Counted from the stretch's first letter, positions 2,479 through 26,675 are shown. The stretch: 32,000 nucleotides of DNA from Methylorubrum extorquens (GCA_900234795.1 LT962688.1:3840001-3872000), one strand, 5' to 3'. Numbers and translations: made by a program. Notes: generated by a model from the sequence alone, not told the origin.

Positions 2479-2537
2479 ACCCTCGCTGTCCGCTTGAGCT
2501 GGACGGCCCGGCCTCTTCCGAAAATCCGAACGGCGGC

Positions 2538-7794: not shown

Positions 7795-8015
7795 GGGCAG
7801 TCTTTACGAAGGCAGGACGCGGATCGGGGTGATCGATCCGTCTTGGGCCAGTTGAGGTCGTTAAGGTTGACTTCCCGTTAAGAGCCGCAGCCTCCCGTCG
7901 TCGGCATTCGAGACGAGAGGTCGAACCCGAGTTGTGATTCCGGCCGGTCGCGCGGCCGGATCAGCATTCGTTAACCATGCGCCGTTAAGTAACGCCGAGG
8001 TTCTTCACAACGGCG

Positions 8016-8594: not shown

Positions 8595-8766
8595 GCCGGC
8601 TCATCGCGACGTTCACCAACCCCTAACCGCGATCTACGAAAGCCGGCCAGCAGAGGCCTCCGCCTACCGTTTGCGCTTGCCCTTTAACCGGCTGCTGACG
8701 GCGCCATGACGATCTTCCGCCGGTTCGGGCCCCGCATCGGGGCCGCCCGCGCGGAGACCGACTGCC

Positions 8767-10026: not shown

Positions 10027-10157
10027 GCGCGGACGGCGGTACGTTCGATGTCCCCGTTTTTCACAGCCCGGCCCGTCCGCGCATTAGGCTTTCGTGAAGG
10101 TCGATGCGGCACACTCGACGACCGGGGAGGCTCGATGTTTTCACGTGGAACATTCCG

Positions 10158-11714
10158 ATGAACGCCATCGACGTTCGGGATCTGCTGAAGGTCGCGAGGG
10201 AGAACGGCGCGCTGACATCCGTGCCGGCGCCGCTCGCGCTCCACAGCGACCAGAATTCTGTCTCTGCTCCGTCCGCGCCGATCCCCGCGCCGACCCCGCC
10301 GAAAGGGGCTTGGCTGTCGCCGGTCGTGCTTGCCGGTTGCGTGCGGCTCGCCGAATTCTGCGGTCTGATCTTGCTTGGCTTGGCTCTGCATCAGGCCTTG
10401 CTGCGCGGCGTCGTACCGCTCGCCCCGCGCTACCACGCCGCCATTCTCGCAGTGACCCTGGCGGCGCTCGGACTGTTCCAGGCATCGGGCAGTTACCGGA
10501 TCAGCGCATTCCGCGATCTGCCGAGAACGGCGGTGAAGCTCGCCACCGGCTGGTCCATCGCCTTCCTGATGGTGGCCGCGGCCATGGTGCTCGCCAAGGT
10601 CGCCGACCATTATTCCCGGATCTGGCTGCTCAGCTATTACATGGCGGGTCTCGGCATCCTGCTCGGCGGCCGCGCAGCGCTTTCGGCCTTCGTCCGCATG
10701 CAGATGGCCAAGGGGCGCTTCGACCGGCGTACCGCGATCGTCGGCGGCGGACCGGCGGCCGTGGAACTGATCCATGCCCTGGAAGCCAGCAGCGACAACG
10801 GCATCCGCATCATCGGGATCTTCGATGACCGGGGCGACGACCGATCCAGCACCGACGTCGCCGGCTACCCCAAGCTCGGCAATGTCAGCGACCTCGTCAC
10901 CTACGCCCGCCACGCGCCCGTCGATCTCGTGGTGTTCACCCTGCCGATCTCGGCCGAGACGCGCATCCTGCAGATGCTCGCCAAGCTCTCGGTTCTGCCG
11001 GTCGACATCCGCCTCTCGGCCCACGCGACCAAGCTGCGCCTGCGCCCGCGCGCCTATTCCTATCTCGGCGGCGTGCCGCTGCTCGACGTGTTCGACAAGC
11101 CGCTGGCCGATTGGGACGTCATCCTGAAGGGCGCGTTCGACCGTGTCGTCGGCCTGCTGCTGCTGCTGGCCCTTTCACCGGCGATGATCGCCGTGGCGCT
11201 CGCGGTGAAGCTCACCTCGCCGGGGCCGGTGCTGTTCCGGCAGAAGCGCTACGGCTTCAACAACGAGCTGATCGAGATCTTCAAGTTCCGCTCGATGTAT
11301 GTCGACCTCTGCGACGCGGGCGCATCGCAGCTCGTTACCAAGACCGATGCCCGGGTGACGCCCGTGGGCCGCTTCATCCGCAAGACATCGCTGGATGAGT
11401 TGCCGCAGCTCTTCAACGTGATCCGCGGCGATCTCTCGCTGGTCGGGCCGCGCCCGCATGCGGTCCAGGCCAAAGCGGCGAACACCCTCTACGATCAGGT
11501 GGTGGACGGGTACTTCGCCCGCCACAAGGTCAAACCCGGCATCACCGGCTGGGCGCAGATCAATGGCTGGCGCGGCGAGACCGACACCAGCGAGAAACTC
11601 CAGCGCCGGGTCGAGCACGACCTGCACTACATCGAGAATTGGTCGATCCTGTTCGACCTCAAGATCCTGCTCACCACGCCGCTCGCGCTCTTTAAGACCG
11701 ACAACGCGTATTGA
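10158..11714 (+). CDS. undecaprenyl-phosphate sugar-1-phosphate transferase (WcaJ/ExoY-type priming enzyme)
   Basis: This is the track ORF 10104-11714; ATG 10158 (MNAIDVRDLL) is the likelier start. It has N-terminal TM helices, a CoA-binding-like domain (TAIVGGGPAAVELI) and a bacterial sugar transferase domain (VLFRQKRYGFNNELIEIFKFRSM, DELPQLFNVIRGDLSLVGPRP). Confidence 0.9.
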   Translation: MNAIDVRDLLKVARENGALTSVPAPLALHSDQNSVSAPSAPIPAPTPPKGAWLSPVVLAGCVRLAEFCGLILLGLALHQALLRGVVPLAPRYHAAILAVTLAALGLFQASGSYRISAFRDLPRTAVKLATGWSIAFLMVAAAMVLAKVADHYSRIWLLSYYMAGLGILLGGRAALSAFVRMQMAKGRFDRRTAIVGGGPAAVELIHALEASSDNGIRIIGIFDDRGDDRSSTDVAGYPKLGNVSDLVTYARHAPVDLVVFTLPISAETRILQMLAKLSVLPVDIRLSAHATKLRLRPRAYSYLGGVPLLDVFDKPLADWDVILKGAFDRVVGLLLLLALSPAMIAVALAVKLTSPGPVLFRQKRYGFNNELIEIFKFRSMYVDLCDAGASQLVTKTDARVTPVGRFIRKTSLDELPQLFNVIRGDLSLVGPRPHAVQAKAANTLYDQVVDGYFARHKVKPGITGWAQINGWRGETDTSEKLQRRVEHDLHYIENWSILFDLKILLTTPLALFKTDNAY

Positions 11715-11817: not shown

Positions 11818-12177
11818 TTACGGCAGCGCGCCGGCCTTCTCCTTCACCTTGGTCATGGTGTCCTGGCAGGCGGTCTCCTGGCCGGCCTTCTCCTGCTCCT
11901 TCGCCTTGGCGAGCAGGGTACGCGCCTCTTCCACACCGGCCTTCGTTGGCTTGGTGGAGGGATCGGACGGGGCGCCGGCCGGCGGCTTGTCGAGGGCCTT
12001 GGGCGAGTTCGAGGAGGTGACGCCGCCCGGCGGCTCCTTGCCGGTCACCTGCTCCGCACCGGCGCTGTTGAGCCGGCGCTCCACCGTGGAGATGTCGTCC
12101 TTGCAGCTGACGGCCAGGGCGGGGCCTGCGGTGACGAGGACGGCGAGGGCAACGGGCAAGGTCAGGGCAATGCGCAT
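11818..12177 (-). CDS. small secreted protein of unknown function, immediately downstream of lanM
   Basis: This is the track ORF 11818-12291. The internal start MRIALTLPVALAVLVTAGPALA (ATG = complement of 12175-12177) gives a signal peptide. The mature part has two Cys (VSCKDD..., QETACQD) flanking a Pro/Lys-rich low-complexity middle. Confidence 0.6.
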   Translation of the reverse strand: MRIALTLPVALAVLVTAGPALAVSCKDDISTVERRLNSAGAEQVTGKEPPGGVTSSNSPKALDKPPAGAPSDPSTKPTKAGVEEARTLLAKAKEQEKAGQETACQDTMTKVKEKAGALP

Positions 12178-12379: not shown

Positions 12380-12781
12380 TTAGCGGATCAGATTGACCAG
12401 GGCCGAACCAGCCGGGCTGGCCAATTCCCTAGCGTCGATGGTGCCATCATTGTCCGGGTTAGCGGCCTTGAATTGCGCCTCGACGGCGGCAAGGTATTCC
12501 TTCTTGTCGAGGGTGCCGTCGTTGTCCGGGTCGAGCTTCTTGAGGTCGGCCTCGCTGACGCGGCCCTTGAGCTCCTTGGCATCGAGCGTGCCGTCCTTAT
12601 CCGGATCGAGCTTGTCGAAGGCAGCGGAGCCGGCGGCCAGGGCCTCCTTCAGATCGATCGTGCCGTCCTTGTCCGGATCGAAGGCGGCGATATCGACCTT
12701 CGTGGTCGTCGTCGGGGCGGCGTAGGCCGGAGCGGCGACGAGCGCAGCGAGCAGAACGGCAGAGGAGAGGCGGAACGCCAT
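12380..12781 (-). CDS. lanM: lanmodulin, periplasmic four-EF-hand lanthanide-binding protein
   Basis: The 133-aa ORF MAFRLSSAVLLAALVAAPAYA-APTTTTKVDIAAFDPDKDGTIDLKE...DPDKDGTLDAKE...DPDNDGTLDKKE...NPDNDGTIDARE...LVNLIR has four 12-residue EF loops, each with Pro at loop position 2. It matches my memory of the published M. extorquens AM1 LanM sequence. Confidence 0.97.
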   Translation of the reverse strand: MAFRLSSAVLLAALVAAPAYAAPTTTTKVDIAAFDPDKDGTIDLKEALAAGSAAFDKLDPDKDGTLDAKELKGRVSEADLKKLDPDNDGTLDKKEYLAAVEAQFKAANPDNDGTIDARELASPAGSALVNLIR

Positions 12782-13003
12782 CGGGGCAAACTCCTGATCG
12801 AAGAGGCCCGGCGAAACCGGGCAAACGGCAAAATCGCAGAGACGCTCGCGACCACCATACCTCAGGCAAACATGCCACCGGACGAGCGGCCGTTCGGCCT
12901 CGCTTAGATTGCGTAACTTGCCCGGGAGAAATTGGCAATAGGCAGGATGGAATTCGCAGCTCCCGCCCAGCCGAAAACCCTGGAGTCAGGGTCAAATACG
13001 GAA

Positions 13004-13073
13004 GCGGCGCGGTCCAGGAGAACCGCGCCGCTCGCGTCGATCGACAGATGCCCCGGACCGGATACGGTCCGGG
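13004..13073 (-). terminator. two perfect 9-bp GC stem-loops between lutH and lanM (possible terminator or attenuator)
   Basis: The first is gcggcgcgg (13004-13012) / ccgcgccgc (13023-13031). The second is cccggaccg (13052-13060) / cggtccggg (13065-13073). On the minus strand the first is followed by TTCCGTATTTGA. Confidence 0.5.
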
Positions 13074-13098
13074 AGCGTGCTCGGTACTTGCGTCCCGC

Positions 13099-15624
13099 TC
13101 AGCCCTTCCGGACCAGCGGGAACGGCTCCACCACGGGGGCGGCCGGCGGCGGCTCGAACAGGATGCGCAGGCCGCCGAAGGCCGCCACCGGCGCGCCGGG
13201 CGCGAGGCTGCGGTTCGAGGTGGCGTTGGGCACCCGGACGATCGGAACCTCGTTCACCGGCGAGAAGGTGCCGAAGGTGGCGTAGTTGGCGTTGAAGGCG
13301 TTCTCGATGTAGCCGTAGAGTTCGATGTTCGACGCCACGCGGTAGCTCGTGTTGAGGCCGACCACCGCGAAATCGCCCGTGGTCTTGTTCTGGTTGGTCG
13401 GATCGCCGACGAGGAACTTGCCCGTGGCGAAGCGCGCGAGCGCGCCGACCCGCCATTCCGGCGTCACCTGATACTGCACGCCGACCTTGAGCTGGTGCGG
13501 CGCGACGCCGGGCAGGCGGTTGCCCGGACGCACGAGCACGACACCGCTCTCGTCGCCGCCGGCGCTGTTGAACGGGTTGCCGGGCGCGGCGAGTTCGACC
13601 GGCGACTCGAAGGTCGCATCGACGAAGGCGTAGTCGATGAAGGCGTTCCAGCGCGGCGCGTTGTAGAACAGGCTCGCCTCGACGCCCTGCCGCTTGGTCG
13701 ATCCGACGTTGCGGAAGAAAGCGCGGCCGATCGTGTCGGGGGCCGGCACGAACAGGATGTCGTCGTCGTTGCGGGTCGAGAAGAAGCCGGCCTTCCACGA
13801 CAGGATGCCGCCGAAATATTCGTCGGGCTGCGGGATGCGGCCGCGGATACCGGCCTCGACGGTGCGCGCCACGACCTGCTTCAGCGGCGGGTCGCCGACG
13901 AAGAAGTTGGTGAGCGAGCAGGGCGCCAGCGGATCGGCGCAGGAGAGTTCGGCCGGGGTCGGGGCGCGGTTGGCTTCCGTGTAGCCGCCGTAGGCCACGA
14001 GGTAGTCGGGGATGACCTTGTAGGTCGCGCCGACGCCGGGGTTGAAGCGCTGGTAATAGTGGTCGCCGTTCAGCGCCGTGCCGATCTGGTCGCGCAGGAC
14101 GATCTTGGCCATGTTGAACCGGCCCTGCAGCGTCAGGGTCAGCCGGTCGGTCAGATCGGTGTTGTTCGAGAAGTAGATGCCGCCGTAATCGTTCGAGGTG
14201 TGGACCGAGACGGGGGTGATGATGCCGTCGTCGCTGGAGACGACGATGCCGGGAGGCGAGAAGCCGCGGTCGAGGGTCAGGCCGCCGATGGAGTTGTCGG
14301 CCCCGAAGCGGGTGCGACCGCCGTCATACTGGCCGCCGAGCACGAAGCGGTTCGGCAGGCCGAACAGCGTCTCGCGGATCACGGTCTGGACCGTAGCGCC
14401 GAAATTGTCGGTGCTGGTACGGGTCTGGTTGAGGAAGGCGTAGGGTCCGCCCTCGTCGAAGCGGTCGGCGAAGGTCGGGTTGATCCCGCCGAAGTTGAAG
14501 GTGCGCAGCCGGTCGGTCCGGACGGGGCTGCCGGTGCGGTCACGCAGGAAGAACTGGTTGTCGTCCGCGCCCTCGGAGCAGACGAAACGCTCATCGACCT
14601 CGCAATTTTCCACGTCGGCGGCGTCGCCGTTGGCGGTGCGCTGGCGGAACAGGCCGTAATAGGCGTTGCCCTGCACGGTGATGGTCGGCGTGACGTCGTA
14701 GGTGCCGGAGAGCTGGAAGCGCAGGAAGTCGTTCTTGGTCTGGTCGGGATAGGTGAAGACGTCGCTGCGGTCGGCCTTCAGCAGCTCGACCGGAGCGGTA
14801 CCGTTGCCGGTCAGGCTGTTGCTGGCACCGATGACGTTGAAGTGGAATTCGCTCTTCTCGCCCTGCACGCCGAGATCGGCGTAGATCTGGTTGAGCCGCG
14901 ACGGCGAGTGCTTGCGCCAGCCGTCCTCGCCGAGCTTGGTGCCGGCGACGTAGAGGCCGATATTGTCGATGCGCTGGCCGTGCTGGAACGCCACCGCGCC
15001 GCGGCCGAACGAGCCGCCGAGCACGTTGATCTCGCTGCCCTGGTAGGTGAAGCCGTTCTTGAGCGTCACCGCCAGCGAGCCGCCGAGCGCGTTGAGGCCG
15101 AAGGCCGGGTTCGAGCCCTCCAGCTCGATCCGATCGACGGCGATGTCGGGGATCAGATCCCACTGCACCGTGTCGCCGAACGAGGTGTTGAAACGGGCAC
15201 CGTTGAGATAGACGGCCACGCCCTGCGGCGAGCCGCCGAGCGGCGAGGCCTCGAAGCCGCGATAGGTGATCGTCGGCTGGAAGGGATTGCCCTGGGCGTT
15301 GTTGACGCTGATCGAGCCGACGCGCTCGTCGAGCGCCCGCACCGTGCTCGGAAAGCCGACGCGCGAGACGTCGCCCGAGGTCAGCACGCTCGTGTTCTGC
15401 GGCAGCTTGTTGCGGTCGATGCCGTCGAGGACCGTGACTTCGCGCAGACCCGACGGGGTCTGGGTGGCGACGACCCGGCGCGAGGCCGCAACCGGCGTGT
15501 TCGAGACGACGCTGATCTCTTCGAGCGTCACGGCCTGTCCACCGCCCGCGCCTTGCGCCATCACATGTCCCGGAAGCAGTGCAACCGATGCGATGAGGCT
15601 GCCTCGCAGCACCCGCATTGTCAT
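13099..15624 (-). CDS. lutH: TonB-dependent outer-membrane receptor (lanthanide/lanthanophore uptake candidate)
   Basis: The 841-aa ORF has a signal peptide MTMRVLRGSLIASVALLPGHVMA and a TonB-box-like VTLEEISVV. Plug motifs are ITYRGFEAS and VDRIELEGSNPAFGLNALGGSL, followed by a long beta-barrel. The symbol is assigned from adjacency to lanM, as in the AM1 lut cluster (from memory). Confidence 0.93.
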   Translation of the reverse strand: MTMRVLRGSLIASVALLPGHVMAQGAGGGQAVTLEEISVVSNTPVAASRRVVATQTPSGLREVTVLDGIDRNKLPQNTSVLTSGDVSRVGFPSTVRALDERVGSISVNNAQGNPFQPTITYRGFEASPLGGSPQGVAVYLNGARFNTSFGDTVQWDLIPDIAVDRIELEGSNPAFGLNALGGSLAVTLKNGFTYQGSEINVLGGSFGRGAVAFQHGQRIDNIGLYVAGTKLGEDGWRKHSPSRLNQIYADLGVQGEKSEFHFNVIGASNSLTGNGTAPVELLKADRSDVFTYPDQTKNDFLRFQLSGTYDVTPTITVQGNAYYGLFRQRTANGDAADVENCEVDERFVCSEGADDNQFFLRDRTGSPVRTDRLRTFNFGGINPTFADRFDEGGPYAFLNQTRTSTDNFGATVQTVIRETLFGLPNRFVLGGQYDGGRTRFGADNSIGGLTLDRGFSPPGIVVSSDDGIITPVSVHTSNDYGGIYFSNNTDLTDRLTLTLQGRFNMAKIVLRDQIGTALNGDHYYQRFNPGVGATYKVIPDYLVAYGGYTEANRAPTPAELSCADPLAPCSLTNFFVGDPPLKQVVARTVEAGIRGRIPQPDEYFGGILSWKAGFFSTRNDDDILFVPAPDTIGRAFFRNVGSTKRQGVEASLFYNAPRWNAFIDYAFVDATFESPVELAAPGNPFNSAGGDESGVVLVRPGNRLPGVAPHQLKVGVQYQVTPEWRVGALARFATGKFLVGDPTNQNKTTGDFAVVGLNTSYRVASNIELYGYIENAFNANYATFGTFSPVNEVPIVRVPNATSNRSLAPGAPVAAFGGLRILFEPPPAAPVVEPFPLVRKG

Positions 15625-15904
15625 TCCCCAGCCCTTATCATTCGTGCTTGCGGCCCGTTCGAGCGGAACCGTTGCCGGATGTTGCTGAAGGAGGGGGGCA
15701 ACGACAATCGCTGCCAGGCTTCTACGGGACCAATTATGATGAGACGCTCAAGCTTCCGCCGGCGCGTGGTGTTCTGGCAACATATTTCTGCCGTTCCGTC
15801 AAAGACTTACGGATAAAAAGGCAGACTTCACCGGGATCATTCGGCAAGCTTCGATCGGCTTTAGCCGCCCGTTCCGACCAGGATTGCGCCGAGTCTCTAT
15901 CGCC

Positions 15905-15930
15905 AAAAAATCGGGATGCCCCACATCCCG
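15905..15930 (-). terminator. intrinsic terminator on the minus strand, ~235 nt downstream of lutG
   Basis: A 7-bp stem, cgggatg (15912-15918) / catcccg (15924-15930), has loop cccca. On the plus strand A6 sits at 15905-15910, which is U6 after the hairpin on the minus strand. Confidence 0.6.
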
Positions 15931-16165
15931 CCGCTTCGGCGCGACCAAGATAGCCGATCACGGAGCGCAGTGCGAAGTCATGCCGCTCGCGCCAAGGCCG
16001 CGTCGCGCCGGGCATCAGATGGCCGGCGGCCGTTCTCGAGGCGAAACGCTTCGACGGCCGCGGCCCGGCCCAAATCCCGGCACGAAATCGTGGACAGGCC
16101 GGTCCGAAACGCTCGTGCCGCAGCGTTCGGCGGAAACGGCTTCGTCGCTTCCGACCGAAGGCGGG

Positions 16166-16795
16166 TCAGAGATGCGCCTGGATGCGGCGGGCGATCTCGC
16201 CCAGGCGCTGCTCCAGAATCGTCGGGACCTCGCAGACGTAGGAGACCGACTGGTTGCGCTCGTCGAAGATCCGACGGTCCCAGTTGAACCGGCTTTCCAG
16301 GTCCGCAACCTCCTTGGATGCGACCTTGGTGGAGTCGGATTCCGGGCTGTCCTTGAACTCGCTCACCTTGTCCGCCTCGTCGCGGATGCGTTCGGCGAGA
16401 CGGCGCTGGCCCTGAGCGTAGCGGCTGATCCCGTTCATCACCGTGCTGCGCTCGCCGTTGATGATCTCGAACACCCCGGCGAAGACGCGGGTCAGGCGCT
16501 TGCCCTTCTCGGCCGGATCGGCCTTCTGCGCGAATTCATCGAGCAGGGTGTCGACTTCGCGCAATTCGGTGCGGCGGGAGGCGAGCTTGCGGGCGAGCTG
16601 GGCCGCCTCGCGGTCGCTGCCCCATTCACCGGCCTCGGCGAGGTCCGGCCCGGTCCAGAACGAGCCGTAGCCCAGCGTCGTCACCTTGCGCTGCGGGCAG
16701 GGCCAATCCGGATCGGTCTTGGGCTGCGCGAGCACGGGCCCCGCCGCGAGGATCAGGGCGAGGCAAAGCGGGGCATGAACGGAACGAGGGATCAT
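16166..16795 (-). CDS. lutG: periplasmic protein of unknown function, last gene of the lutA-G operon
   Basis: This is the track ORF 16166-17059. The start MIPRSVHAPLCLALILAAGPVLA (ATG = complement of 16793-16795) lies 10 nt after the lutF stop. The mature protein is mostly helical and charged, with one Cys near each end (DWPCPQ, SYVCEVP). The symbol comes from gene order (from memory). Confidence 0.75.
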   Translation of the reverse strand: MIPRSVHAPLCLALILAAGPVLAQPKTDPDWPCPQRKVTTLGYGSFWTGPDLAEAGEWGSDREAAQLARKLASRRTELREVDTLLDEFAQKADPAEKGKRLTRVFAGVFEIINGERSTVMNGISRYAQGQRRLAERIRDEADKVSEFKDSPESDSTKVASKEVADLESRFNWDRRIFDERNQSVSYVCEVPTILEQRLGEIARRIQAHL

Positions 16796-16805
16796 GGGAG
16801 GTCTC

Positions 16806-17699
16806 TCAGGCGGCTTCGCCGGCCGGTCCGCCGCGCCGGGCCATGATGCCGCGGCCCGGATCGTAGGCGATTGCGGCGAGGGTGAAGAACAGGAGGCCGG
16901 TGCCGACCACGACGGCGCAGGCGACCGGCTCGAAGCGCCCGTAGAGAGCGAAACGCACCAATTCGACCGCGTGGGTGAACGGGTTGGCCTGGCAGATGAG
17001 ATAGAGCCACTCGCTCGATGCCCGGACCTGCCAGAGCGGATATAGGGCAGAAGAGGCAAAGAACATCGGGAAGATCACGAAATTCATGACGCTCGCGAAG
17101 TTCTCAAGTTGCCGCACCAGCGAGGACAGGAACAGGCCGATCGCCCCGAGCATCAGCCCCGAGGCCAGGAAGGCCGGCAGCGCGGCGAGGTAGCCGAGGG
17201 GCGGAATGCCGGTCTCCCAGAACCATGCGATGGCGAGGAACGCGTACGCCTGAACGATAGAGACACTGACGCCCGCGACCAGCTTGGCCAGCAGCAGCGA
17301 CCAGCGCGGATAGGGCGAGGTGAGCAGCACCTTCATCGAGCCGACCTCGCGGTCGTAGACCATCGAGAGCGAGGATTGCATGCCGTTGAAGAGCTGGATC
17401 ATCACCGCGAGCCCCGGCACCACGTAGGCCTCGTAGAGCACGTAGGTCTCGTAGGGCGGCGTGATCGAGGTGCCGAGCGTGTTGCGGAAGCCCGCCGCGA
17501 AGATGAACAGCCAGACGAGCGGGCGCACCATCGCCGAGAAGAAGCGCTCCTTCTGGTGGAAGAAGCGCAGCAACTCGCGGCGGACGATGCCGCCGAGCGC
17601 GATGAGGTAGCCGACCGCATCGAGCCGGCCCGCATGGGGCACGGGCTTCGCGCCGTCCTCGGCACGGGCTGCAACGGCGGGGTTCGAGGGAGACCTCAT
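16806..17699 (-). CDS. lutF: ABC-2-type transporter permease
   Basis: The 297-aa ORF has about six hydrophobic helices, for example RPLVWLFIFAAGF, GLAVMIQLFNGMQSS and LFLSSLVRQLENFASVMNFVIFPMFFASSALYP (the ABC-2 signature region). Its ATG overlaps the lutE stop as ATGA. Confidence 0.9.
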   Translation of the reverse strand: MRSPSNPAVAARAEDGAKPVPHAGRLDAVGYLIALGGIVRRELLRFFHQKERFFSAMVRPLVWLFIFAAGFRNTLGTSITPPYETYVLYEAYVVPGLAVMIQLFNGMQSSLSMVYDREVGSMKVLLTSPYPRWSLLLAKLVAGVSVSIVQAYAFLAIAWFWETGIPPLGYLAALPAFLASGLMLGAIGLFLSSLVRQLENFASVMNFVIFPMFFASSALYPLWQVRASSEWLYLICQANPFTHAVELVRFALYGRFEPVACAVVVGTGLLFFTLAAIAYDPGRGIMARRGGPAGEAA

Positions 17700-18445
17700 G
17701 CGGCGGACTTCACGGCTCTCTTGTCGGGTTCGGCGACGAGGCGGCGGAAGGCAGCCTCCAGCGTCTCACCGGGCCCGCCGATCTCCCCAGCGCGGCCACG
17801 GGCGACGATGCGGCCCTTGTGCAGGACCACGGCGTCGTCCTCGGGCGAAATCTCCTCGAAGATGTGGGTCGCCCACAGCACCGAGAGACCCTCCTCCCGC
17901 ACCAGGGCGCGGACGATGGCGACGATGTCGGCGCGCGATTCGAGGTCGAGCCCGACGGTCGGCTCGTCGAGCAGCAGCAGGCGCGGCGCGTGGATCAGCG
18001 AGCGGGCGATCTCGATGCGCCGCGACTGGCCGCCGGAAAGGGTGCGGATCTTGTCGTCGCGCCGCTCGGCAAGGCCGACGCGGGCGAGCAGGGTCTCGAT
18101 GCGCGCACGCGCCGCCGCCCGGCCGATGCCGTGCAGGCTGGCGTGGTAGTGCAGGTTCTGCGCGACGGTGAGGTCGGTATCCAGCGTCCGCGCCTGGAAC
18201 ACCACGCCGAGGCCGGCGAGCGCCCGCGACGGCTCACGGTCGAGCGGATGGCCGAGGATCGAGACCCGGCCCTCCTGGTTGTTGTAGAGCCGGGTGATCA
18301 CCGAGAACAACGTGGTCTTGCCCGCGCCGTTGGGCCCGAGCAGCGCCATGAAATGCCCGCGCTCGACGGTGATCGACACGTCGGACAGCGCGGCGCGCTG
18401 GCCGAAGCGGTGGCTGACGCCGGCAACGTCGAGAGCCGCGCTCAT
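17696..18445 (-). CDS. lutE: ABC transporter ATP-binding protein
   Basis: This is the track ORF 17696-18487. I prefer the start MSAALDVAGVSHRF (complement of 18443-18445), which overlaps the lutD stop as ATGA. It has Walker A GPNGAGKTT, signature LSGGQSRR and Walker B LLLLDEPTVGLD. Confidence 0.95.
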   Translation of the reverse strand: MSAALDVAGVSHRFGQRAALSDVSITVERGHFMALLGPNGAGKTTLFSVITRLYNNQEGRVSILGHPLDREPSRALAGLGVVFQARTLDTDLTVAQNLHYHASLHGIGRAAARARIETLLARVGLAERRDDKIRTLSGGQSRRIEIARSLIHAPRLLLLDEPTVGLDLESRADIVAIVRALVREEGLSVLWATHIFEEISPEDDAVVLHKGRIVARGRAGEIGGPGETLEAAFRRLVAEPDKRAVKSAA

Positions 18446-18720
18446 TTCGGCAGCGCCCGCTTGGCGTCGTCGAGCGCTTCCAGGCACTCGTCAAACTCGC
18501 CCTCGCCTTGCTCGCGCTCGGCGATCTTCAGCGCGCGCTTGAGTTTTTGCGGGACGGCTTCCGGTGCGAGCTTTTCCGCCTGCGCCTTCACCACGCTGAT
18601 GCCCTCGGCGCAGGCGGCCTTGTCGTCGGCGAGCGCCGGGGTCGCAAGCACCACGAGGGCAAGCAGGGCGCTACCGCGAAAACCTCTCGGTACGGCGAGG
18701 GAGGTGCGTGTGCGCATCAT
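18442..18720 (-). CDS. lutD: small secreted helical protein with a Cys pair and an acidic C-terminal patch
   Basis: The 92-aa ORF has signal peptide MMRTRTSLAVPRGFRGSALLALVVLATPALA. The mature part reads DDKAACAEGISVVKAQAEKLAPEAVPQKLKRALKIAEREQGEGEFDECLEALDDAKRALPK. It is translationally coupled to lutE. The symbol comes from gene order (from memory). Confidence 0.7.
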   Translation of the reverse strand: MMRTRTSLAVPRGFRGSALLALVVLATPALADDKAACAEGISVVKAQAEKLAPEAVPQKLKRALKIAEREQGEGEFDECLEALDDAKRALPK

Positions 18721-18733
18721 GAGATGTCCCCCC

Positions 18734-19168
18734 TCACTTCACCGTAATCGTGCCGGCCATGCCCTTTTCCTCAAGCCCTTGCGCGTACCACTTGTAGGCA
18801 CCCGGCTTGATGGCGACGAACTCGATGGCGATCTCGCCGGGATCGTCGAATTCGAGATGGTCGGGCGGGCCGCCGCCGTGGATCTCTTTGTGCTCGATCA
18901 CGATCTGGTTGAACCAGATGTAGCGGAAGAATTCGGGCGCGTAGAATTTGTACTCCTGCCGCCCCTTGGCGACGATGCGCAGGCGGTAGGCCTTGCCGGC
19001 TTCCAGCTCGATATCCTTGTTCTCGACCACGAAGTCGTTGCCCTCCTCGTTGCCGAGCACGAGGTCGGGCAGGTTCTGCCGCTTCTTGGTGAGGTCGAGG
19101 GCGCTCGCCGGGGCGGCGGCCAGCATCAGGGCCGCGGCGGCGAGGCCGAGGCGCGTCGTCCACTTCAT
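18734..19168 (-). CDS. lutC: periplasmic cupredoxin-like protein apparently lacking copper ligands
   Basis: This is the track ORF 18734-19225. The start MKWTTRLGLAAAALMLAAAPASA (complement of 19166-19168) is preceded by GGAGGA. The C-terminal KPGAYKWYAQGLEEKGMAGTITVK resembles the cupredoxin PGxYxYxCxxxxHxxxGMxGxIxV strand pair, but with Ala and Leu/Glu where Cys and His are expected. Confidence 0.72.
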   Translation of the reverse strand: MKWTTRLGLAAAALMLAAAPASALDLTKKRQNLPDLVLGNEEGNDFVVENKDIELEAGKAYRLRIVAKGRQEYKFYAPEFFRYIWFNQIVIEHKEIHGGGPPDHLEFDDPGEIAIEFVAIKPGAYKWYAQGLEEKGMAGTITVK

Positions 19169-19189
19169 GTCGCTTCCTCCGGTTTCTTG

Positions 19190-19242
19190 TTCTTGCATCG
19201 CCCTTTTCCGAAGGCCGGCAACCACCTTTCGGGACGATGCCT
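19190..19242. repeat. ~50-bp palindromic intergenic element, copy 1 (between lutB and lutC)
   Basis: The sequence ttcttGCATCGcccTTTTCCGAAgGCCGGcaaCCACCTTTCGGgaCGATGC is near-identical to 25386-25437. The outer arms GCATCG/CGATGC and inner arms CCGAA(A)G/CTTTCGG can form a long hairpin. Confidence 0.8.
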
Positions 19243-19259
19243 TAGCCGGCGAACTGAAC

Positions 19260-20246
19260 TTACTTCTTCGAGATCGCCACGCCCCAGGGCAGCAACCCGA
19301 CCGGGATGCTTTTCACCACCTTCAGCCCCTCGACGTCGATGACCGAAACGTCGTTGGAGGTGCCGTTGGTCGTGTAGAGTTGCTTCTCGTCGGGCGTGAA
19401 GGCGAGCTGCCAGACGCGCTGGCCGACGGGCAGGTATTTCTGCACCTCGTAGGTCTTGGCATCGACCACCGCGACGCGGTTGGCCGGCCCGAGCGCGACG
19501 AAGGCGCGGGTGCCGTCCTTGGTCAGGCGCACGCCGACGGGCTGGATCTGCTCGTCGGTGACGCTCGGAACCTTGAAGGTGATCTTCTTGATGACCTTGC
19601 GGGTCGCCACGTCGATCACCGAGACCGTGCCGCCGACCTCGGCCGAGACCCAGAGGAACTTGCCGTCCGCCGAGAACTCGGCGAAGCGCGGCCGGGCATC
19701 GACCAGCACGTTGTCGATCACCTCGAAGGTCTTGGTGTCGATGAAGTGGGCCATGTTGGTGGTCTCGGAGGTGTTCACGAGAATCTTGCCGTCCGGCGAT
19801 AGGCCCATCCCCTCCGGCTCGACGCCCACCGGCACCTCGGCCAAAACCTTGTTCTTCTCGATGTCGAGGATGGTGACTTGGCTGTCGTCCTCGTTGGCGA
19901 CGTAGAGCGGGTTGCCGCTCTGATCGAGGATGAACTGCTCCGGGTCGGGCCCCGAGCGCAGGGAGCGGACCACCTTGCCGGTCGCGGTGTCGAGCACGTC
20001 GATGCGGTCGTCGTCGCTGGCGCAAACGAACAGTTCCTTGTCGTCCTTGGAGAGCGTCACGCCGCGCGGGCGACGCCCGACCTTCCAGGTCCCGGTCACC
20101 GCCAGGGTCTCGGTGTCGATGACCGAGACGGTGTTGGCCTTCTCGTTGGTGACGTAGGCGGTAAAGGCTTGTGCGCTCCCTGCGCTCCCGAGCGACACGC
20201 CCGCGAGCAGCGCGCATCCCAGTCCTGCCCTCAAGCGAGCGACCAT
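19260..20246 (-). CDS. lutB: periplasmic YVTN-repeat beta-propeller protein (PQQ-dehydrogenase-system-associated type)
   Basis: This is the track ORF 19260-20408, with the start MVARLRAGLGCALLAGVSLGSAGSAQA at the complement of 20244-20246. The body shows repeated blades of the form xYVTNxxxNTVSVIDxxTxxVxxxxxVGxxPxGxxxSxDG. Confidence 0.9.
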   Translation of the reverse strand: MVARLRAGLGCALLAGVSLGSAGSAQAFTAYVTNEKANTVSVIDTETLAVTGTWKVGRRPRGVTLSKDDKELFVCASDDDRIDVLDTATGKVVRSLRSGPDPEQFILDQSGNPLYVANEDDSQVTILDIEKNKVLAEVPVGVEPEGMGLSPDGKILVNTSETTNMAHFIDTKTFEVIDNVLVDARPRFAEFSADGKFLWVSAEVGGTVSVIDVATRKVIKKITFKVPSVTDEQIQPVGVRLTKDGTRAFVALGPANRVAVVDAKTYEVQKYLPVGQRVWQLAFTPDEKQLYTTNGTSNDVSVIDVEGLKVVKSIPVGLLPWGVAISKK

Positions 20247-20412
20247 CGGCGTCCTCCCTGTCGTTTCCGGCGCGTCGTCTCGCGCGCCTGCGTCCACATC
20301 GGCTGGAGCGACATGGCCCCCGCGGCCCCGTCGCTCAAACAAGAAACAGATGATCGGCTGAACCTCACCGGGCGGTGGATTGCCGCATCGCCCGGATCGC
20401 ATCCGCAAGCGG

Positions 20413-21681
20413 TCACGGCAGCTTGCACGCGGTCTCCGGCATGTCGGCCCCCAGCGTATCGAGCGGCGTGCGCTGGTGGATGAAGCCCTGTTCGGGCGCT
20501 ACCGAGACCATCGCCTTGGGCTGCACCACGATGATCGGCTGGCGCAACTGGTGGTCCCAGGGCCGGTAGGTCAGGGACACGCCCTTGTAGGCGGGCAGCG
20601 AGAATTCGGGCTTCACGAGATGGGCCGCGAGCGTGGCCGGATCGGTGCTGCGCGTCTGCGTCGCCGCCTCGCCGACCGTGCGCACGGCCGCCCAGACCTG
20701 ATAATCGAGCGGTCGCATCAGGCGGCTCGCCAGTCGTCGGAAACGGTTCTGCGCCTGGGCCGCGCCCCAGGTCTCCAGGGTCGGGTGCCACGTGGTCGCG
20801 ATCAGCCCCTGCGTACCGGCCACGGGGCGCGGATCGACGGTGCGGAACGGGACATAATCGCCCCAATCGCCCTCCTCGTCGGCGACCACCGCCAAGTCGT
20901 AGTCGAGCCCGCGGGTGAACACCATCGCCTCGGCCCGGGTCGGCGTGTCGCCGCGGGCCTTCGCCAGGGGGCCGAAGGTCCAGGGCTTCTCCGCGGTGAT
21001 CTTGAGGCCGAACTTGCGGGCGGAGTTCCGCATCGCGTCCGCGTAGGCCTTGTCGCGCTCGGTCGGGCCGGTGATCAGAAAGATCTTCCGCCAGCGCATC
21101 AGCGTCAGGTACTGCGCCAGCGCATCCGTCTGCATGGCGCGGCTCGGCAGCACGTGGAACAGGTTGGCGCGGCAATCGGCCCCGCGCAGGCGGTCGTCCG
21201 GCGCGCCGGCATTGAGGATGACCGCGCCCGTCTCCTTCAGCGCATCGGCCACCGCCAGCACCTCGGCGGCGGGCAGGGCCAGCACGAAGAACCGCACGCC
21301 CTTGTCCGCAAGCGCCTTGGCCGCCTCGACCGGATCGCGCTCGCCGTCGAGGGCGACTTCGTCCAGGGCGAAGGTCTGCTTGGTGAAGCGGCCGGTGGTG
21401 TTGTTGTCCTTCACCGCCATACGCGCGCCGGCTACGCCGAGATCCTCGGGGTCGGCCTCGGCATCGTAGGACGAGGGCGCCGGCACCGGGCGATAGAGGA
21501 CGGCGATGTGGGTCTCGGAGCCGGGGACCGGCGCGGGCGTCTCATTCGCAGGGGAGCCCGGCGGCGGCTCGCCGGTGGCCGCCTTCGGCTCCTGGGCGCG
21601 GGCATGGATGGAAGCGGCCAGGAATGCGGCCGGGCCGGTCGCGAGACCGGCGGCGAGGAGGAGCGGAACGGACAAACGCAT
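20413..21681 (-). CDS. lutA: periplasmic substrate-binding protein (type I / LivJ-like fold, PQQ-dehydrogenase-system-associated ABC component)
   Basis: The 422-aa ORF has signal peptide MRLSVPLLLAAGLATGPAAFLAASIHARA and a Pro-rich linker. The following LivJ-like body includes GVRFFVLALPAAEVLAVADAL, VILNAGAPDDRLRG and KIFLITGPTERDKAYADAMRNSARKFG. Confidence 0.9.
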   Translation of the reverse strand: MRLSVPLLLAAGLATGPAAFLAASIHARAQEPKAATGEPPPGSPANETPAPVPGSETHIAVLYRPVPAPSSYDAEADPEDLGVAGARMAVKDNNTTGRFTKQTFALDEVALDGERDPVEAAKALADKGVRFFVLALPAAEVLAVADALKETGAVILNAGAPDDRLRGADCRANLFHVLPSRAMQTDALAQYLTLMRWRKIFLITGPTERDKAYADAMRNSARKFGLKITAEKPWTFGPLAKARGDTPTRAEAMVFTRGLDYDLAVVADEEGDWGDYVPFRTVDPRPVAGTQGLIATTWHPTLETWGAAQAQNRFRRLASRLMRPLDYQVWAAVRTVGEAATQTRSTDPATLAAHLVKPEFSLPAYKGVSLTYRPWDHQLRQPIIVVQPKAMVSVAPEQGFIHQRTPLDTLGADMPETACKLP

Positions 21682-21913: not shown

Positions 21914-22435
21914 ATGCGACTTCGCGCCCTCCTGCCCGCCCTCACCCTCCTGTCGACGCTGAGCGGGACAGCCCTGGCAGAGGATGCGGCACGCAAGGCT
22001 GCGATCTTCCCGGCGGAGGTGAACGATCCGACGCTGGCCTATGGCCGCAAGCCGCTGCCGGCGGACCAGAAGCGCCTCGACCTCGTCACCGACGTGCTGC
22101 GCAAGCAACTCGCCGAGAAGGGCGGCCTCGAGAGCGTCGATCTCAGCCCCCAGGCGGAGGAAATCCGTAAGGAGAGCCCACTCTACAAGTGCAACGACTG
22201 CGTCGCTCCGATCGCCAAGGCGCTGGGCGCGGAACTCGCCGTGACCGCCTTCGCCGACAAGGGCGCCAACCAGTTGTTCAGCCTCGTCGTCACCATCGCC
22301 GAAGCCGAGACCGGCAAGGTCGTGCGCCGGGGCCAGGTCGTGATAAGAGCCAACACCGACGACGACTGGTCCCACGCCACACGCTGGATCGTGAAGAACC
22401 GCCTTCTGGCCGAGCCGCTGCCCGGCCGTTCCTGA
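21914..22435 (+). CDS. periplasmic protein of unknown function with a CxxC motif
   Basis: This is the track ORF 21746-22435, with the start MRLRALLPALTLLSTLSGTALA at ATG 21914. The mature protein contains YKCNDCVAPIAKALGAELAVTAF. I have a vague recollection of a DUF3280/DUF2380-type family, which is not verifiable here. Confidence 0.7.
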   Translation: MRLRALLPALTLLSTLSGTALAEDAARKAAIFPAEVNDPTLAYGRKPLPADQKRLDLVTDVLRKQLAEKGGLESVDLSPQAEEIRKESPLYKCNDCVAPIAKALGAELAVTAFADKGANQLFSLVVTIAEAETGKVVRRGQVVIRANTDDDWSHATRWIVKNRLLAEPLPGRS

Positions 22436-22480
22436 AGCGGGGCTTGTGCGGGCGCGCAAGGCTGAGCAAGAACGTTTCCC

Positions 22481-23191
22481 GTGTCCGACATCGTATCGAT
22501 TTCCTCCCCGCGTCCCCGCCTGCTCGTCAGCGTCCGTGGGCCCGACGAGGCGCTGACCGCGCTCCGGGCCGGGGCGGACCTGATCGACGCCAAGGATCCC
22601 GAGCGCGGGGCGCTCGGCGCGCTGCCGCCCGAGACCGTGCGCGCCATCGTTGCGGGCGTCGGCGGGCAAGCCGTCACCAGCGCGGTGGCCGGCGACGGCA
22701 CTGGGCGCGAAATCGCCGCGGCCATCGCGACCATTGCCGCAACCGGCGTCGATTTCATCAAGATCGCGGTCGGCGCCACCGACGATGCCGCTCTGGCCGA
22801 GGCCGCCGCGCAGGCGCCGGGCCGGGTCATCGGCGTGCTCTTCGCCGAGGATGACGTGGCCGAGGATGGGCCGGCGCGCCTCGCCGCAGCCGGCTTTGTC
22901 GGGGCGATGATCGACACCCGCGGCAAGAGCGGCACCACGCTTACCAACCTCATGGCCGCGTCGCAGCTTGCCGCCTTCGTCGCCGGATGCCGCACGCACG
23001 GCCTGATGAGCGGCCTTGCCGGCTCGCTCGGGCTCGGCGACATCCCGGCGCTCGCGCGGCTCGACCCCGATTATCTCGGCTTCCGCGGCGGCCTGTGCCG
23101 CGCCGGCGACCGGCGGCAGGCGCTTGACGGAGCCCGGGTCGCGCAGGCGGTCGAAGCGATGCGGGCCGGCCCGCGAGCCGACGCGGCGTGA
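22481..23191 (+). CDS. MfnB-like (DUF556) aldolase, the family of the furan-moiety synthase of methanofuran/methylofuran
   Basis: The 236-aa ORF has a GTG start. Its sequence LLVSVRGPDEALTALRAGADLIDAKDPERGALGALPPETV...VDFIKIAVG...GAMIDTRGKSG...GLAGSL has the TIM-barrel pattern of the (5-formylfuran-3-yl)methyl phosphate synthase family. Confidence 0.8.
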   Translation: MSDIVSISSPRPRLLVSVRGPDEALTALRAGADLIDAKDPERGALGALPPETVRAIVAGVGGQAVTSAVAGDGTGREIAAAIATIAATGVDFIKIAVGATDDAALAEAAAQAPGRVIGVLFAEDDVAEDGPARLAAAGFVGAMIDTRGKSGTTLTNLMAASQLAAFVAGCRTHGLMSGLAGSLGLGDIPALARLDPDYLGFRGGLCRAGDRRQALDGARVAQAVEAMRAGPRADAA

Positions 23192-23196
23192 GGCGT

Positions 23197-23811
23197 ATGA
23201 CAAGCGCTAGCCCAGTCGCTCCCCGTGTCACGGGGACAATCGACGGCGCTGTCGTCAAGATCGGCGGCAGCCTCGTCGCGGATCGCGCGCGGCTTTGCGC
23301 CATCCTCGCCGAATGCGCGGAGCAACCGCCGGTCGCGATCGTGCCCGGCGGTGGACTCTTCGCCGACGCCGTGCGCGCGACCCAAGCTGCGCTCAGCCTC
23401 GACGACGCCCTCGCCCACCGCCTCGCCCTCGACGCCATGGGCCGCATGGCCGAGGTGTTCTGCGCGCTCGAACCACGGCTCACCATCGCCCGGAGCCCCG
23501 AGGCCGTTGCCGATGCCCTCGCTCAGGGCCGCTCCGTCATCTGGGATCCGGTCGCGCTCAAAGCGGGTCATGCCGATATCGCCGAGAGCTGGGACGTCAC
23601 CTCCGACAGCCTCGCCCTGTGGATCGCAGGCATGCTCGGCGTCGATCGCTGCATCCTTGTGAAGTCGGCAAAACTTACCTCGCAGACCGATCCCGCGGCC
23701 CTCGCACGAGCCGGCCTCGTCGATGCCGCGTTCCCGCGTTTCGCCGCCGGCTTCGGCGGAGTGATCGTGATCCGCGGCGCCGAGGATATCAGCCAGAGGC
23801 ACGCCGCATGA
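23197..23811 (+). CDS. amino-acid-kinase-fold protein (H4MPT/methylofuran biosynthesis-associated kinase, MfnE-like by context)
   Basis: This is the track ORF 23188-23811. The start is either ATG 23197 or GTG 23188, which overlaps the upstream stop. Motifs VVKIGGSL, VAIVPGGGLFADAVR and SDSLALWIAGMLGVDRCILVKS match the AAK family. Confidence 0.8.
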   Translation: MTSASPVAPRVTGTIDGAVVKIGGSLVADRARLCAILAECAEQPPVAIVPGGGLFADAVRATQAALSLDDALAHRLALDAMGRMAEVFCALEPRLTIARSPEAVADALAQGRSVIWDPVALKAGHADIAESWDVTSDSLALWIAGMLGVDRCILVKSAKLTSQTDPAALARAGLVDAAFPRFAAGFGGVIVIRGAEDISQRHAA

Positions 23812-25382
23812 GCGCGCCCGAACATCTCGTCTTCATCACCGGCAAGCTGGCCCATGCCCGCCTCGAAAAGGTCGCGGCCACGCTGCCGGCCGAGCGGTTC
23901 ACCTGGAGCATCGCCGATGCCGGGGTGAAGGTCGCCGCGCTGATGACCGAGGAAATCATCAAGCGGCGGGTGCAGATGCCCGAGGGCGCGACCCGGATCG
24001 TCCTGCCCGGCCGCTGCCGCGCCAACCCGGAGGCGCTGGCGCAGCACTTCGGCCTCCCGGTGGAGCGGGGGCCGGACGAGATCGTTGATTTGCCGGCTTA
24101 TCTTGGCCTGACCGGGCGCAAGGTCGATCTCTCGCGCCACGACCTGCGCATCTTCTCCGAGATCGTCGACGCCTCGAAGATGACGCCCGACCAGATCCTG
24201 GCCAAGGGTCTCGACCTCGCTCGCCGCGGGGCCGACGTGATCGATCTCGGCGGGCTGCCCGATACGGCGTTCCCGCATCTGGAGGACAGCGTGCGGGCGC
24301 TGAAAGGGGCCGGGCTGAAGGTCAGTGTCGATTCCTTCTCCCTCGATGAGCTGACCCGCGGGGCGCGGGCCGGCGCCGACTTCCTGCTGAGCCTCAACGA
24401 GGAGACGCTGGATCTCGCCTTCGAGACCGACGCGGTGCCGATCCTCGTGCCGATGCGCCCCGACGACCTGCCCTCTCTCGACCGCGCCATCGAGCGGATG
24501 GAGCGGGCGGGCCGGCCCTACATGGCCGATCCGATCCTGGAGCCGATTCATTTCGGCTTCGTCGACTCGATCGTCCGCTACCGCGAGATCCGCGCGCGCT
24601 GGCCGAACATCGAGATGATGATGGGCACCGGCAACCTCACCGAACTCACTGAGGCCGACAGCCTCGGCGTCACGGCGCTCCTCATCGGCATGTGCTCGGA
24701 ACTCGCCATCCGCAACGTGCTGATCGTGCAGGTCTCGAACCACACCCGCCGCACGGTGGAGGAGCACGATGCCGCCCGCCGGGTGATGTACGCGGCACGA
24801 GAGGACGCCGCCCTGCCCAAAGGCTATGGCCGCGAGTTGCTGGCGCTGCACGACAAGCGCCCCTTCGTGCAGACCTCCGATGAAATTGCCGCGCTGGCCG
24901 CGGAGGTGCGCGATCCCAATTACCGCATCGCCGTCGCCGAGGACGGCATCCACGTCTACAACCGCGACCGTCACACCACCGGCACCGACGCGATGGCCTT
25001 CTTCCCCGAACTGAGCGTGGAGAGCGACGGCGCGCACGCCTTCTATCTCGGCGGAGAACTGACGAAGGCCGAGACCGCGTTCCGCCTCGGCAAGCGCTAC
25101 GTGCAGGACGAACCCCTCGATTGGGGCTGCGCCGCCGACCGGACCCAGGAAGACACCACCGCCTTCAAGGCGGCCGGGCCGACGAAAGCCGCCCACACCA
25201 AGCATAGCGGCCCCGAGGCGCCCACCGCCGAGCGCGCGACCCAGGCCGATCCGGAGCGCGACGCCGCGCCACCGCGGACCGAGACCGGCAGCGGCACGGC
25301 ATCGGAACGCGACCCGCTCAGCGAGCCGAAGGGCGGCCGCATCGTCTGCGGCCGGCTGGTGCCCGACGAGGACCGGAATTAG
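23808..25382 (+). CDS. dihydropteroate-synthase-like pterin-binding protein (methanopterin-pathway DHPS analogue)
   Basis: This is the C-terminal 524 codons of track ORF 23295-25382. ATG 23808 overlaps the upstream stop as ATGA. The pterin-binding-barrel pattern includes GADVIDLGG, GLKVSVDSF, ADFLLSLN and MMMGTGNLTELTEADSLGV. A long low-complexity Pro/Ala/Glu tail follows. Confidence 0.82.
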   Translation: MSAPEHLVFITGKLAHARLEKVAATLPAERFTWSIADAGVKVAALMTEEIIKRRVQMPEGATRIVLPGRCRANPEALAQHFGLPVERGPDEIVDLPAYLGLTGRKVDLSRHDLRIFSEIVDASKMTPDQILAKGLDLARRGADVIDLGGLPDTAFPHLEDSVRALKGAGLKVSVDSFSLDELTRGARAGADFLLSLNEETLDLAFETDAVPILVPMRPDDLPSLDRAIERMERAGRPYMADPILEPIHFGFVDSIVRYREIRARWPNIEMMMGTGNLTELTEADSLGVTALLIGMCSELAIRNVLIVQVSNHTRRTVEEHDAARRVMYAAREDAALPKGYGRELLALHDKRPFVQTSDEIAALAAEVRDPNYRIAVAEDGIHVYNRDRHTTGTDAMAFFPELSVESDGAHAFYLGGELTKAETAFRLGKRYVQDEPLDWGCAADRTQEDTTAFKAAGPTKAAHTKHSGPEAPTAERATQADPERDAAPPRTETGSGTASERDPLSEPKGGRIVCGRLVPDEDRN

Positions 25383-26610: not shown

Positions 26611-26675
26611 CACAAGTCGCTCGAACGAAGGGTGAGGCTGCCATGCTCGGCGGCTTCAATGGGAGGAGAAAACGC

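Follow-up and report, generated by a model that had tools for sequence, protein, structure and literature searches.

A window of 32,000 nucleotides (nt) from Methylorubrum extorquens (GCA_900234795.1 LT962688.1:3840001-3872000; "the window" below means this whole stretch of DNA) contains ten genes on one strand, arranged as lutA-B-C-D-E-F-G-H, lanM, lutI. Judged from their sequences, these genes almost certainly constitute the lut/lan cluster (lanthanide utilization and transport) known from the M. extorquens group. The cluster is already described and genetically tested in the literature, and its detection in the window is a rediscovery rather than a new finding. Indeed, a preliminary description of the region, made from the sequence, had named the lut cluster of strain AM1 and had called the locus "not undescribed", and both statements hold. 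New here are three results. As judged from gene order, lutA-B-C-E-F-G is a syntenic core that is kept in distant loci near xoxF and pqq (pyrroloquinoline quinone, PQQ) genes, and lutD, lutH, lanM and lutI are lineage-specific additions to it. LutC is, according to its predicted structure, a cupredoxin-fold protein without a type-1 copper site. Finally, LutG is a protein with a conserved Cys pair that has neither a Pfam family nor a fold match in the PDB.

The identity of the cluster follows from the comparison with strain AM1. The same ten co-oriented genes form META1p1778-1787 of AM1 (and the orthologous cluster of PA1), the ten-gene cluster that was named "lut", with LutI as its tenth gene, in a study that also reported single deletions (PMC7391723). 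The locus tags printed there (for LutA, B, E, F, G, H, LanD and LanM) fit the order of the genes in the window. A comparison of the products with those of AM1 had been proposed earlier as a check; our direct sequence comparison covered LanM, LanD and LutA of the ten products, and all three agree. LutA of the window exactly matches AM1 ACS39620.1, residues 23-133 of LanM (the mature protein) are identical to M. extorquens lanmodulin of AM1 (PDB 6MI5; 111 of 111 residues), and LutD is 92% identical to LanD of AM1 (PDB 9C8W; 56 of 61 residues, E = 1.9e-30). Also the overlap of lanD with lutE (PMC11551332) and the long spacer between lutG and lutH (PMC7391723) known from AM1 are both present in the window. 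Since LanD differs at five positions, the window comes from a strain other than AM1. Unchanged copies of the LutD and LutH sequences occur under accessions of M. extorquens and of "M. zatmanii".

All nine minus-strand open reading frames (ORFs) that had been predicted between positions 12380 and 21681 are present at or within the bounds given for them (Table 1). Start codons were picked from the positions of Shine-Dalgarno sequences and signal peptides, and the resulting gene models agree with the gene calls of CP021054.1 (assembly GCA_002117815.2), which is 99.98% identical to window positions 8441-28722; over shorter spans, the identity to several isolate assemblies reaches 100%. The preliminary description had regarded the nine genes as a complete island. 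This does not stand, as the published cluster comprises ten genes (PMC7391723) and lutI, called as a gene of 119 amino acids (aa) in CP021054.1, had been overlooked. The genes lutD and lutE (AAATGAGC) as well as lutE and lutF (GCATGAGG) are joined by ATGA overlaps, which can be read directly from the sequence and agree with the earlier account, and lutG starts 10 nt beyond lutF. Wider gaps separate lutA from lutB (166 nt), lutB from lutC (91 nt), lutG from lutH (547 nt), lutH from lanM (317 nt) and lanM from lutI (202 nt). As had also been claimed, every exported product begins with a signal peptide, recognisable by basic residues, a hydrophobic segment and a cleavage motif of the A-x-A type; mature LutD is predicted to start at the residue with which the crystallised LanD chain begins.

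The family assignments made earlier for LutA, LutB, LutE, LutF, LutH and LanM are borne out by the profile searches. The former four belong to the four families of ATP-binding cassette (ABC) systems associated with PQQ dehydrogenases (PedA1A2BC type), a check that had been suggested before: all four models are matched above their cut-offs by genes encoded together, namely TIGR03863 (LivJ-like) by LutA (503.7 bits, cut-off 413.6; PF13458 also matches), TIGR03866 by LutB (530.3 bits, cut-off 287.3), TIGR03864 by LutE (350.6 bits, cut-off 302.25) and TIGR03861 by LutF (379.9 bits, cut-off 241.35). In LutA the signal peptide is followed by a Pro-rich N-terminal extension of about 50 residues, and the start of lutB at 20246 is backed by a Shine-Dalgarno sequence, the signal peptide and a gene call of 328 aa. 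The ABC system had been termed atypical. Among Pfam models, LutF matches ABC-2 families only (PF01061, PF12698 and PF12679), with no match to importer-type BPD_transp or FecCD permeases, which is in line with that term. LutH contains the Plug (PF07715) and TonB_dep_Rec_b-barrel (PF00593) domains; of the curated receptor subfamilies (PqqU, siderophore, heme, B12 and copper) none is reached at its cut-off, the best score with the siderophore, heme and B12 models being 78.7 bits compared to a required 1200.

LanM scores 199.7 bits with NF053806 (cut-off 135), and its translation shows four EF loops (DPDKDGT, DPDKDGT, DPDNDGT and NPDNDGT) with proline at loop position 2. LutD is LanD (landiscernin), for which crystal structures (9C8W-9C90) show a three-helix bundle stapled by a disulfide between Cys37 and Cys79; Glu70, Glu73 and Glu75 bind the lanthanide at the surface, with Arg69 and Glu78 in the second sphere, and the metal bridges two monomers (PMC11551332). 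The monomer prefers neodymium (Nd) and samarium (Sm), and the protein interacts with LanM and hands the metal over to it; the authors propose that it siphons non-preferred lanthanides away from import (PMC11551332). LutD of the window carries C37, R69, E70, E73, E75, E78 and C79, and each of these residues is kept in 95% or more of 76 orthologues. The preliminary description had stated that biochemical functions are lacking for LutB, LutC, LutD and LutG. For LutD this is no longer correct (PMC11551332); for LutB, LutC and LutG, and likewise for LutI, the literature that we searched up to September 2026 assigns no function, and no functional study of lutB, lutC or lutG with lanthanide was found in the literature from 2021 onward.

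The five substitutions between AM1 LanD and LanD of the window all lie in helix 1. In AM1, Asp39 and Arg47 form a salt bridge of the apo dimer (PMC11551332), whereas the window protein has Glu39 and Gln47, so that the pair is removed. We treat the salt bridge as a feature of the AM1 protein and not of the LanD family, and the sequences leave room for a difference between the two strains in that apo dimerisation of LanD may not be the same. A common origin of LutD, LutI and LutG as helical proteins with a Cys pair was considered and is not supported by BLASTP and hhalign: mature LutI and LutD give no BLASTP match, the hhalign probability for LutD and LutI is 85% with signal peptides included and 10% (E = 0.003) without them, and for LutD and LutG it is 1%.

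LutC had been called cupredoxin-like, and its predicted structure agrees with this. No Pfam or NCBIfam model is matched at its cut-off (Pfam Cupredoxin_1 gives E = 0.03, and the plastocyanin model TIGR02656 gives 17 bits with a cut-off of 88), and a sequence search of the PDB found nothing. The AlphaFold2 (AF2) model, built with 27 homologues (predicted local distance difference test score, pLDDT, 84), matches cupredoxins in the PDB with a Foldseek probability of 1.0 and a template modelling score (TM-score) of about 0.55-0.6 on the query. With E ≤ 0.001, 604 PDB matches were obtained, and the best 50 of these 604 are all cupredoxin-fold copper proteins. Cysteine is absent from LutC and from all 27 aligned homologues. 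The C-terminal motif YKWYAQGLEEKGMAGTITVK resembles, by eye, the plastocyanin ligand loop; this presumed alignment puts Ala at the position of the Cys ligand and Leu at that of the second His. Neither H104 nor M137 reaches 95% conservation in distant homologues. As there is no cysteine and these remnant His and Met residues are not conserved, LutC is not a blue copper protein, and its reading as a copper-site protein was rejected. Conserved instead are other polar residues (Y61, R62, E72, K74, R82, N87, Q88, E95, H97, E106 and D108 in 100 sequences of at least 35% identity), among which E72, E95, H97, E106 and D108 are kept in at least 95% of the sequences.

For LutG, described earlier as helical, the AF2 model (pLDDT 86) is indeed all-helical, with long helices. 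The best PDB match of this fold has E = 0.16, the matches being no more than long-helix proteins of a generic kind, e.g. BAR domains, and neither a Pfam family nor a sequence match in the PDB was detected. Relatives of LutG are numerous (821 clusters at 50% identity, E ≤ 0.001). Homologues of 30-47% identity share W31, C33, W47, G49, W58, R116, Q130, C188 and P191 as invariant residues. One source names a LutG homologue DUF1311/LprI; this name was not confirmed, as a search with 24 diverse LutG homologues did not return DUF1311 among the best 25 of 30 families with E ≤ 1.

To compare the locus between genomes, we used two samples, one of 80 species representatives of Methylobacterium/Methylorubrum (counts refer to 77 of them upstream of lutG and to 73 downstream) and one of 80 metagenome loci whose LutG is 34-44% identical to that of the window (19 of them long enough to be judged). 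Upstream of lutG, lutA to lutF are present in 76-77 of 77 species representatives. Downstream of it the content varies: an orthologous lutH (at least 70% identity) is found in 16 of 73 genomes and a different receptor (35-40% identity) in 40, lanM in 26 and lutI in 53. In the metagenome sample, lutA-B-C-E-F-G is contiguous in 14-17 of the 19 long loci; lutD and lanM were never detected in these loci, and lutH and lutI were each seen once, on one Methylobacterium-like contig. The propeller gene lutB is syntenic in 77 of 77 Methylobacterium loci and in 17 of 19 distant ones. A lutF homologue lies directly upstream of lutG in 70 of the 80 metagenome contigs, and in two of four distant contigs of about 1 kb, the two that we inspected in detail, the genes overlap by 4 nt or are separated by 18 nt. 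On two short contigs (L161 and L169) the gene of the LutG homologue is immediately preceded by that of a LutC homologue, lutE and lutF being absent from the interval; this hints at alternative arrangements that keep LutC and LutG together.

The surroundings of the module are also partly shared. In three long metagenome loci, pqqB/E and genes for a PQQ dehydrogenase of the methanol/ethanol family, an XoxG-type cytochrome and a CXXCW protein adjoin the module, and two of these three loci have the same MfnB-like neighbours as the window. Beside lutA, the metagenome loci L128 and L147 (with LutG about 38% identical) contain ORFs that match the genes divergent from lutA in the window in size, order and N-terminus; of these ORFs, the MfnB-like gene of L147 is the one that was checked with a family model. 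This gene order suggests a long-standing linkage of the lut core with methylotrophy cofactor biosynthesis.

Much of what had been proposed as a follow-up, namely deletions in an mxaF background, the response to La3+ and lanthanum (La) uptake, is published for AM1/PA1 (PMC7391723). In AM1, mutants of lutE and lutF do not grow on methanol with La, those of lutA, lutB and lutG grow at 0.02-0.03 per h (compared to 0.16 per h), loss of lutC causes a small defect and loss of lutD none (PMC7391723, Table 2). Moreover, lutH is needed in the mxaF background, and La in the spent medium was measured for the lutA, lutE and lutF mutants (PMC7391723). The model of that study and later papers describe the system as one of import from the periplasm to the cytoplasm; one of them (PMC13583147, September 2026) refers to LutA, LutE and LutF as the presumed importer, gives no function for LutB or LutG and does not mention LutC.

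In the scheme published for the AM1/PA1 orthologues, LutH takes up the lanthanide through the outer membrane, in all probability in chelated form, and LutA, LutE and LutF carry light lanthanides on into the cytoplasm in an ATP-driven step. LanD binds lanthanide weakly at Glu70/Glu73/Glu75 and passes Nd/Sm-type ions to LanM, which binds them much more tightly. Since the six-gene core is conserved, LutB, LutC and LutG most likely do their work in the periplasm as components of the ABC step and are not lanthanide buffers. The core together with the slow growth common to lutA, lutB and lutG mutants would place LutB and LutG at the step of the binding protein. Because lutG stays closely linked to lutF even in distant taxa, with probable translational coupling, LutG would most simply be a periplasmic accessory subunit that lets the exporter-fold ABC-2 permease, which is not known to have another means of doing so, accept the cargo of LutA, and LutB and LutC appear to be the best candidates for release of the metal from the chelator or its hand-over.

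Several points weigh against these assignments. All phenotypes come from the orthologues in AM1/PA1 and not from the window strain, and the roles suggested for LutB, LutC and LutG draw only on synteny, conservation and similarity of phenotype. That the conserved Glu, Asp and His residues of LutC cluster in space is an assumption. The small growth defect after loss of lutC in AM1 (PMC7391723) is weak for an obligate part of the core, and the Beijerinckiaceae bacterium RH AL1 is reported with lutABEFG and without lutC (PMC13583147). In addition, it would be unusual for an ABC-2 permease to import with the help of a binding protein, and the inward direction is putative. We consider it rather unlikely that lutA-B-C-E-F-G is an ancient self-contained machine of a hitherto undescribed type in the full sense, i.e. 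an ABC-2 importer fed by a binding protein, with LutG as adaptor and with LutC and LutB stripping the metal from the chelator. If this were true, LutC would represent a further, structurally new class of site binding lanthanide or a lanthanide chelate.

The fold of the permease is also the starting point for an alternative in which LutE and LutF do not import at all but act as a periplasm-facing mechanotransducer or exporter, similar to NosDFY with NosL in the assembly of a copper site: powered by ATP hydrolysis, LutG, LutB and LutC would remove lanthanide from its chelator or supply it to XoxF on the periplasmic side, and accumulation in the cytoplasm would be indirect. Characterised ABC-2 members are exporters or mechanotransducers, and LutF belongs to this family (PF01061, with a weaker match to PF12679). 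Three extra periplasmic proteins whose genes stay with those of the transporter even in distant taxa would fit such a device, and so would the folds, as LutB has a sub-threshold match to the lactonase-type propeller of NosZ and LutC the predicted cupredoxin fold, which are both folds of nitrous oxide reductase. However, the resemblances to NosZ and NosY are far below the family cut-offs, a dedicated LivJ-type binding protein such as LutA is typical of importers, and the published model, with spent-medium La measured in lutA, lutE and lutF mutants, is one of import (PMC7391723). On balance we regard a mechanotransducer as very improbable.

Lanthanide transport as such is questioned by two further explanations, to both of which we give next to no credence. 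The NCBIfam/TIGRFAM names of LutA, LutB, LutE and LutF refer to PQQ alcohol dehydrogenases (e.g. "alcohol ABC transporter, permease PedC"), and in distant loci the module adjoins pqq and PQQ-dehydrogenase genes, so that it could be a generic accessory transporter for an alcohol, an aldehyde or a PQQ-related substrate, standing beside lanthanide genes by chance. Yet lanD lies within the block and lanM follows it, both of which encode proven lanthanide binders, and the dehydrogenases in the distant loci come with an XoxG-type cytochrome, which fits a lanthanide-dependent XoxF. Deletions in M. extorquens tie the transporter to lanthanide supply (PMC7391723), and growth of Pseudomonas putida that depends on rare-earth elements relies on PedA1A2BC, as PMC6839425 concludes from its genetics. 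An island for the uptake of iron siderophores is just as hard to maintain. It is brought to mind by the automatic names of LutH ("iron complex outer membrane receptor", "BtuB", i.e. iron or cobalamin) and by the layout of TonB receptor, binding protein and ABC transporter, but LutH reaches none of the siderophore, heme and B12 cut-offs, the permease is of the ABC-2 and not the FecCD type, LanM and LanD are lanthanide-selective, and the phenotypes of lutH mutants are lanthanide-specific (PMC7391723). The cluster is already the reference system for lanthanide uptake in bacteria, and the residual interest lies in LutC, LutG, LutB and LutI. The comparative data point to LutC and LutG as the proteins likeliest to explain how metal is transferred from a chelator to an ABC-2 system. 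This also has a bearing on protein-based tools for the capture and separation of rare earths, which have so far been based mainly on LanM and LanD.

In AM1 the cluster was judged to consist of several transcripts, with lutG and lutH separate, and La causes a fourfold repression at the lutH promoter (PMC7391723). In the window, a terminator-like hairpin with a T-run lies 236 nt past the stop codon of lutG. It fits separate lutA-G and lutH transcripts (PMC7391723) and is a weak call, as terminator-like sites are no more frequent in the region than expected by chance. Upstream of lutH, the blocks TTGCC, TCCC, ATGTTGC/GCAACAT and GATTGT are invariant in 18 species; ATGTTGC (15783-15777) and its reverse complement GCAACAT (15685-15679) form a 7-nt inverted repeat with about 100 nt between the copies. 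From their conservation, these blocks are probably the promoter/operator of the La-repressed lutH. A structured RNA leader or riboswitch was considered and rejected, RNAalifold with the 18 species giving -4.4 kcal/mol and one covarying pair. Rfam has no match in this region, its only hit in the window being a small SRP (signal recognition particle) RNA elsewhere. Since covariation lends no support to an RNA element, the blocks are better read as control sites at the DNA level. A sigma-70 promoter scan gave no minus-strand match within the cluster.

LutI relatives form 51 clusters, and all of those with a source name come from Methylobacterium or Methylorubrum. In their alignment, Cys25 and Cys104 are invariant and the middle segment, rich in Pro and Ser, is conserved; a sequence search of the PDB found nothing for LutI. 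Many residues of the linker-like segment 44-72 are invariant (e.g. G46, P49, G52, T54, S58, K60, A61, L62, P66 and D72). Such conservation suggests that the middle of LutI is a functional peptide motif rather than a simple spacer.

The genes flanking the cluster agree with the earlier statement that methylotrophy cofactor genes and fae are nearby. They encode an MfnB-like 4-(hydroxymethyl)-2-furancarboxaldehyde-phosphate (4-HFC-P) synthase, an MfnE-like kinase, a DUF6513/pterin-binding protein, a DUF447 protein and HisA/F-related and CitG-like proteins. No genes for the chelator methylolanthanin (mll/mlu, named in PMC13583147) were found among the ORFs scanned, which were a part of those in the window. 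On the other side, the gene for a WcaJ-type undecaprenyl-phosphate glucose phosphotransferase converges on lutI. A second YVTN propeller gene, a sub-threshold paralogue of lutB, has single-base homopolymer insertions (C at 27270 and G at 27546) compared to CP021054.1 and two other assemblies; the gene is either frameshifted in the window strain or affected by assembly errors. Two MxaD-like genes lie beside it, and an MxaD homologue, META1p1771, was a hit in a transposon screen of AM1.

Table 1. Genes and other features of the lut/lan region, with positions counted from the first nucleotide of the window
Feature	Position	Strand	Description and basis
lutA	20413-21681	-	periplasmic solute-binding protein of ABC system; 422 aa; TIGR03863, PF13458
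lutB	19260-20246	-	exported YVTN seven-bladed beta-propeller; 328 aa; TIGR03866
lutC	18734-19168	-	exported protein, predicted cupredoxin fold, no cysteine; 144 aa; AF2 and Foldseek
lutD (lanD)	18442-18720	-	landiscernin; precursor of 92 aa; match to PDB 9C8W
lutE	17696-18445	-	ABC ATPase; 249 aa; TIGR03864
lutF	16806-17699	-	ABC-2 type permease; 297 aa; TIGR03861 and PF01061
lutG	16166-16795	-	exported protein, predicted all-helical, Cys33/Cys188 pair; 209 aa; AF2 model
Terminator-like hairpin and T-run	15912-15930	-	weak call; terminator scan
lutH 5' region with invariant blocks	15619-15848	-	alignments, 18 species
lutH	13099-15618	-	TonB-dependent outer-membrane receptor; 839 aa; Plug and beta-barrel domains
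lanM	12380-12781	-	lanmodulin; precursor of 133 aa; NF053806
lutI	11818-12177	-	tenth cluster gene, exported; 119 aa; signal peptide, Cys pair
Small SRP RNA gene, bacterial	2385-2481	+	Rfam RF00169, 58.8 bits
Exopolysaccharide block (left flank)	5380-11714		chain-length determinant/transport protein, GT4 glycosyltransferase, WcaJ-type enzyme
Genes divergent from lutA	21914-25382	+	DUF3280, MfnB-like synthase, MfnE-like kinase, DUF6513/pterin-binding, DUF447
Two MxaD-like genes	26065-26610, 26643-27206		Polyketide_cyc2; beside second propeller
Second YVTN propeller	27234-28334	+	sub-threshold LutB paralogue; TIGR03866, E = 4.8e-34
fae	30463-30975		flank of cluster

Among other known systems, PedA1A2BC of P. 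putida KT2440 comprises the same four families as LutA, LutB, LutE and LutF. PedA1A2BC is named as four genes, whereas the lut block adds LutC, LanD and LutG and then the receptor, LanM and LutI; this contrast is one of published naming and not of a Pseudomonas locus. With TonB-dependent siderophore systems the cluster shares the envelope-spanning logic, and uptake seems to need a secreted chelator. It differs from them in its permease, which has an ABC-2 exporter-type fold and not a FecCD/BPD-type fold, in up to six additional periplasmic proteins and in a receptor that belongs to no curated siderophore subfamily. For LutC the closest folds are the type-1 copper cupredoxins (plastocyanin, AcoP and the domains of nitrite reductase), with which the predicted fold is common but not the His-Cys-His-Met ligand set. 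The syntenic core itself is matched in RH AL1, where lutABEFG is contiguous and co-expressed with pqqA genes and where lanD, lanM and lutH are located elsewhere in the genome (PMC13583147).

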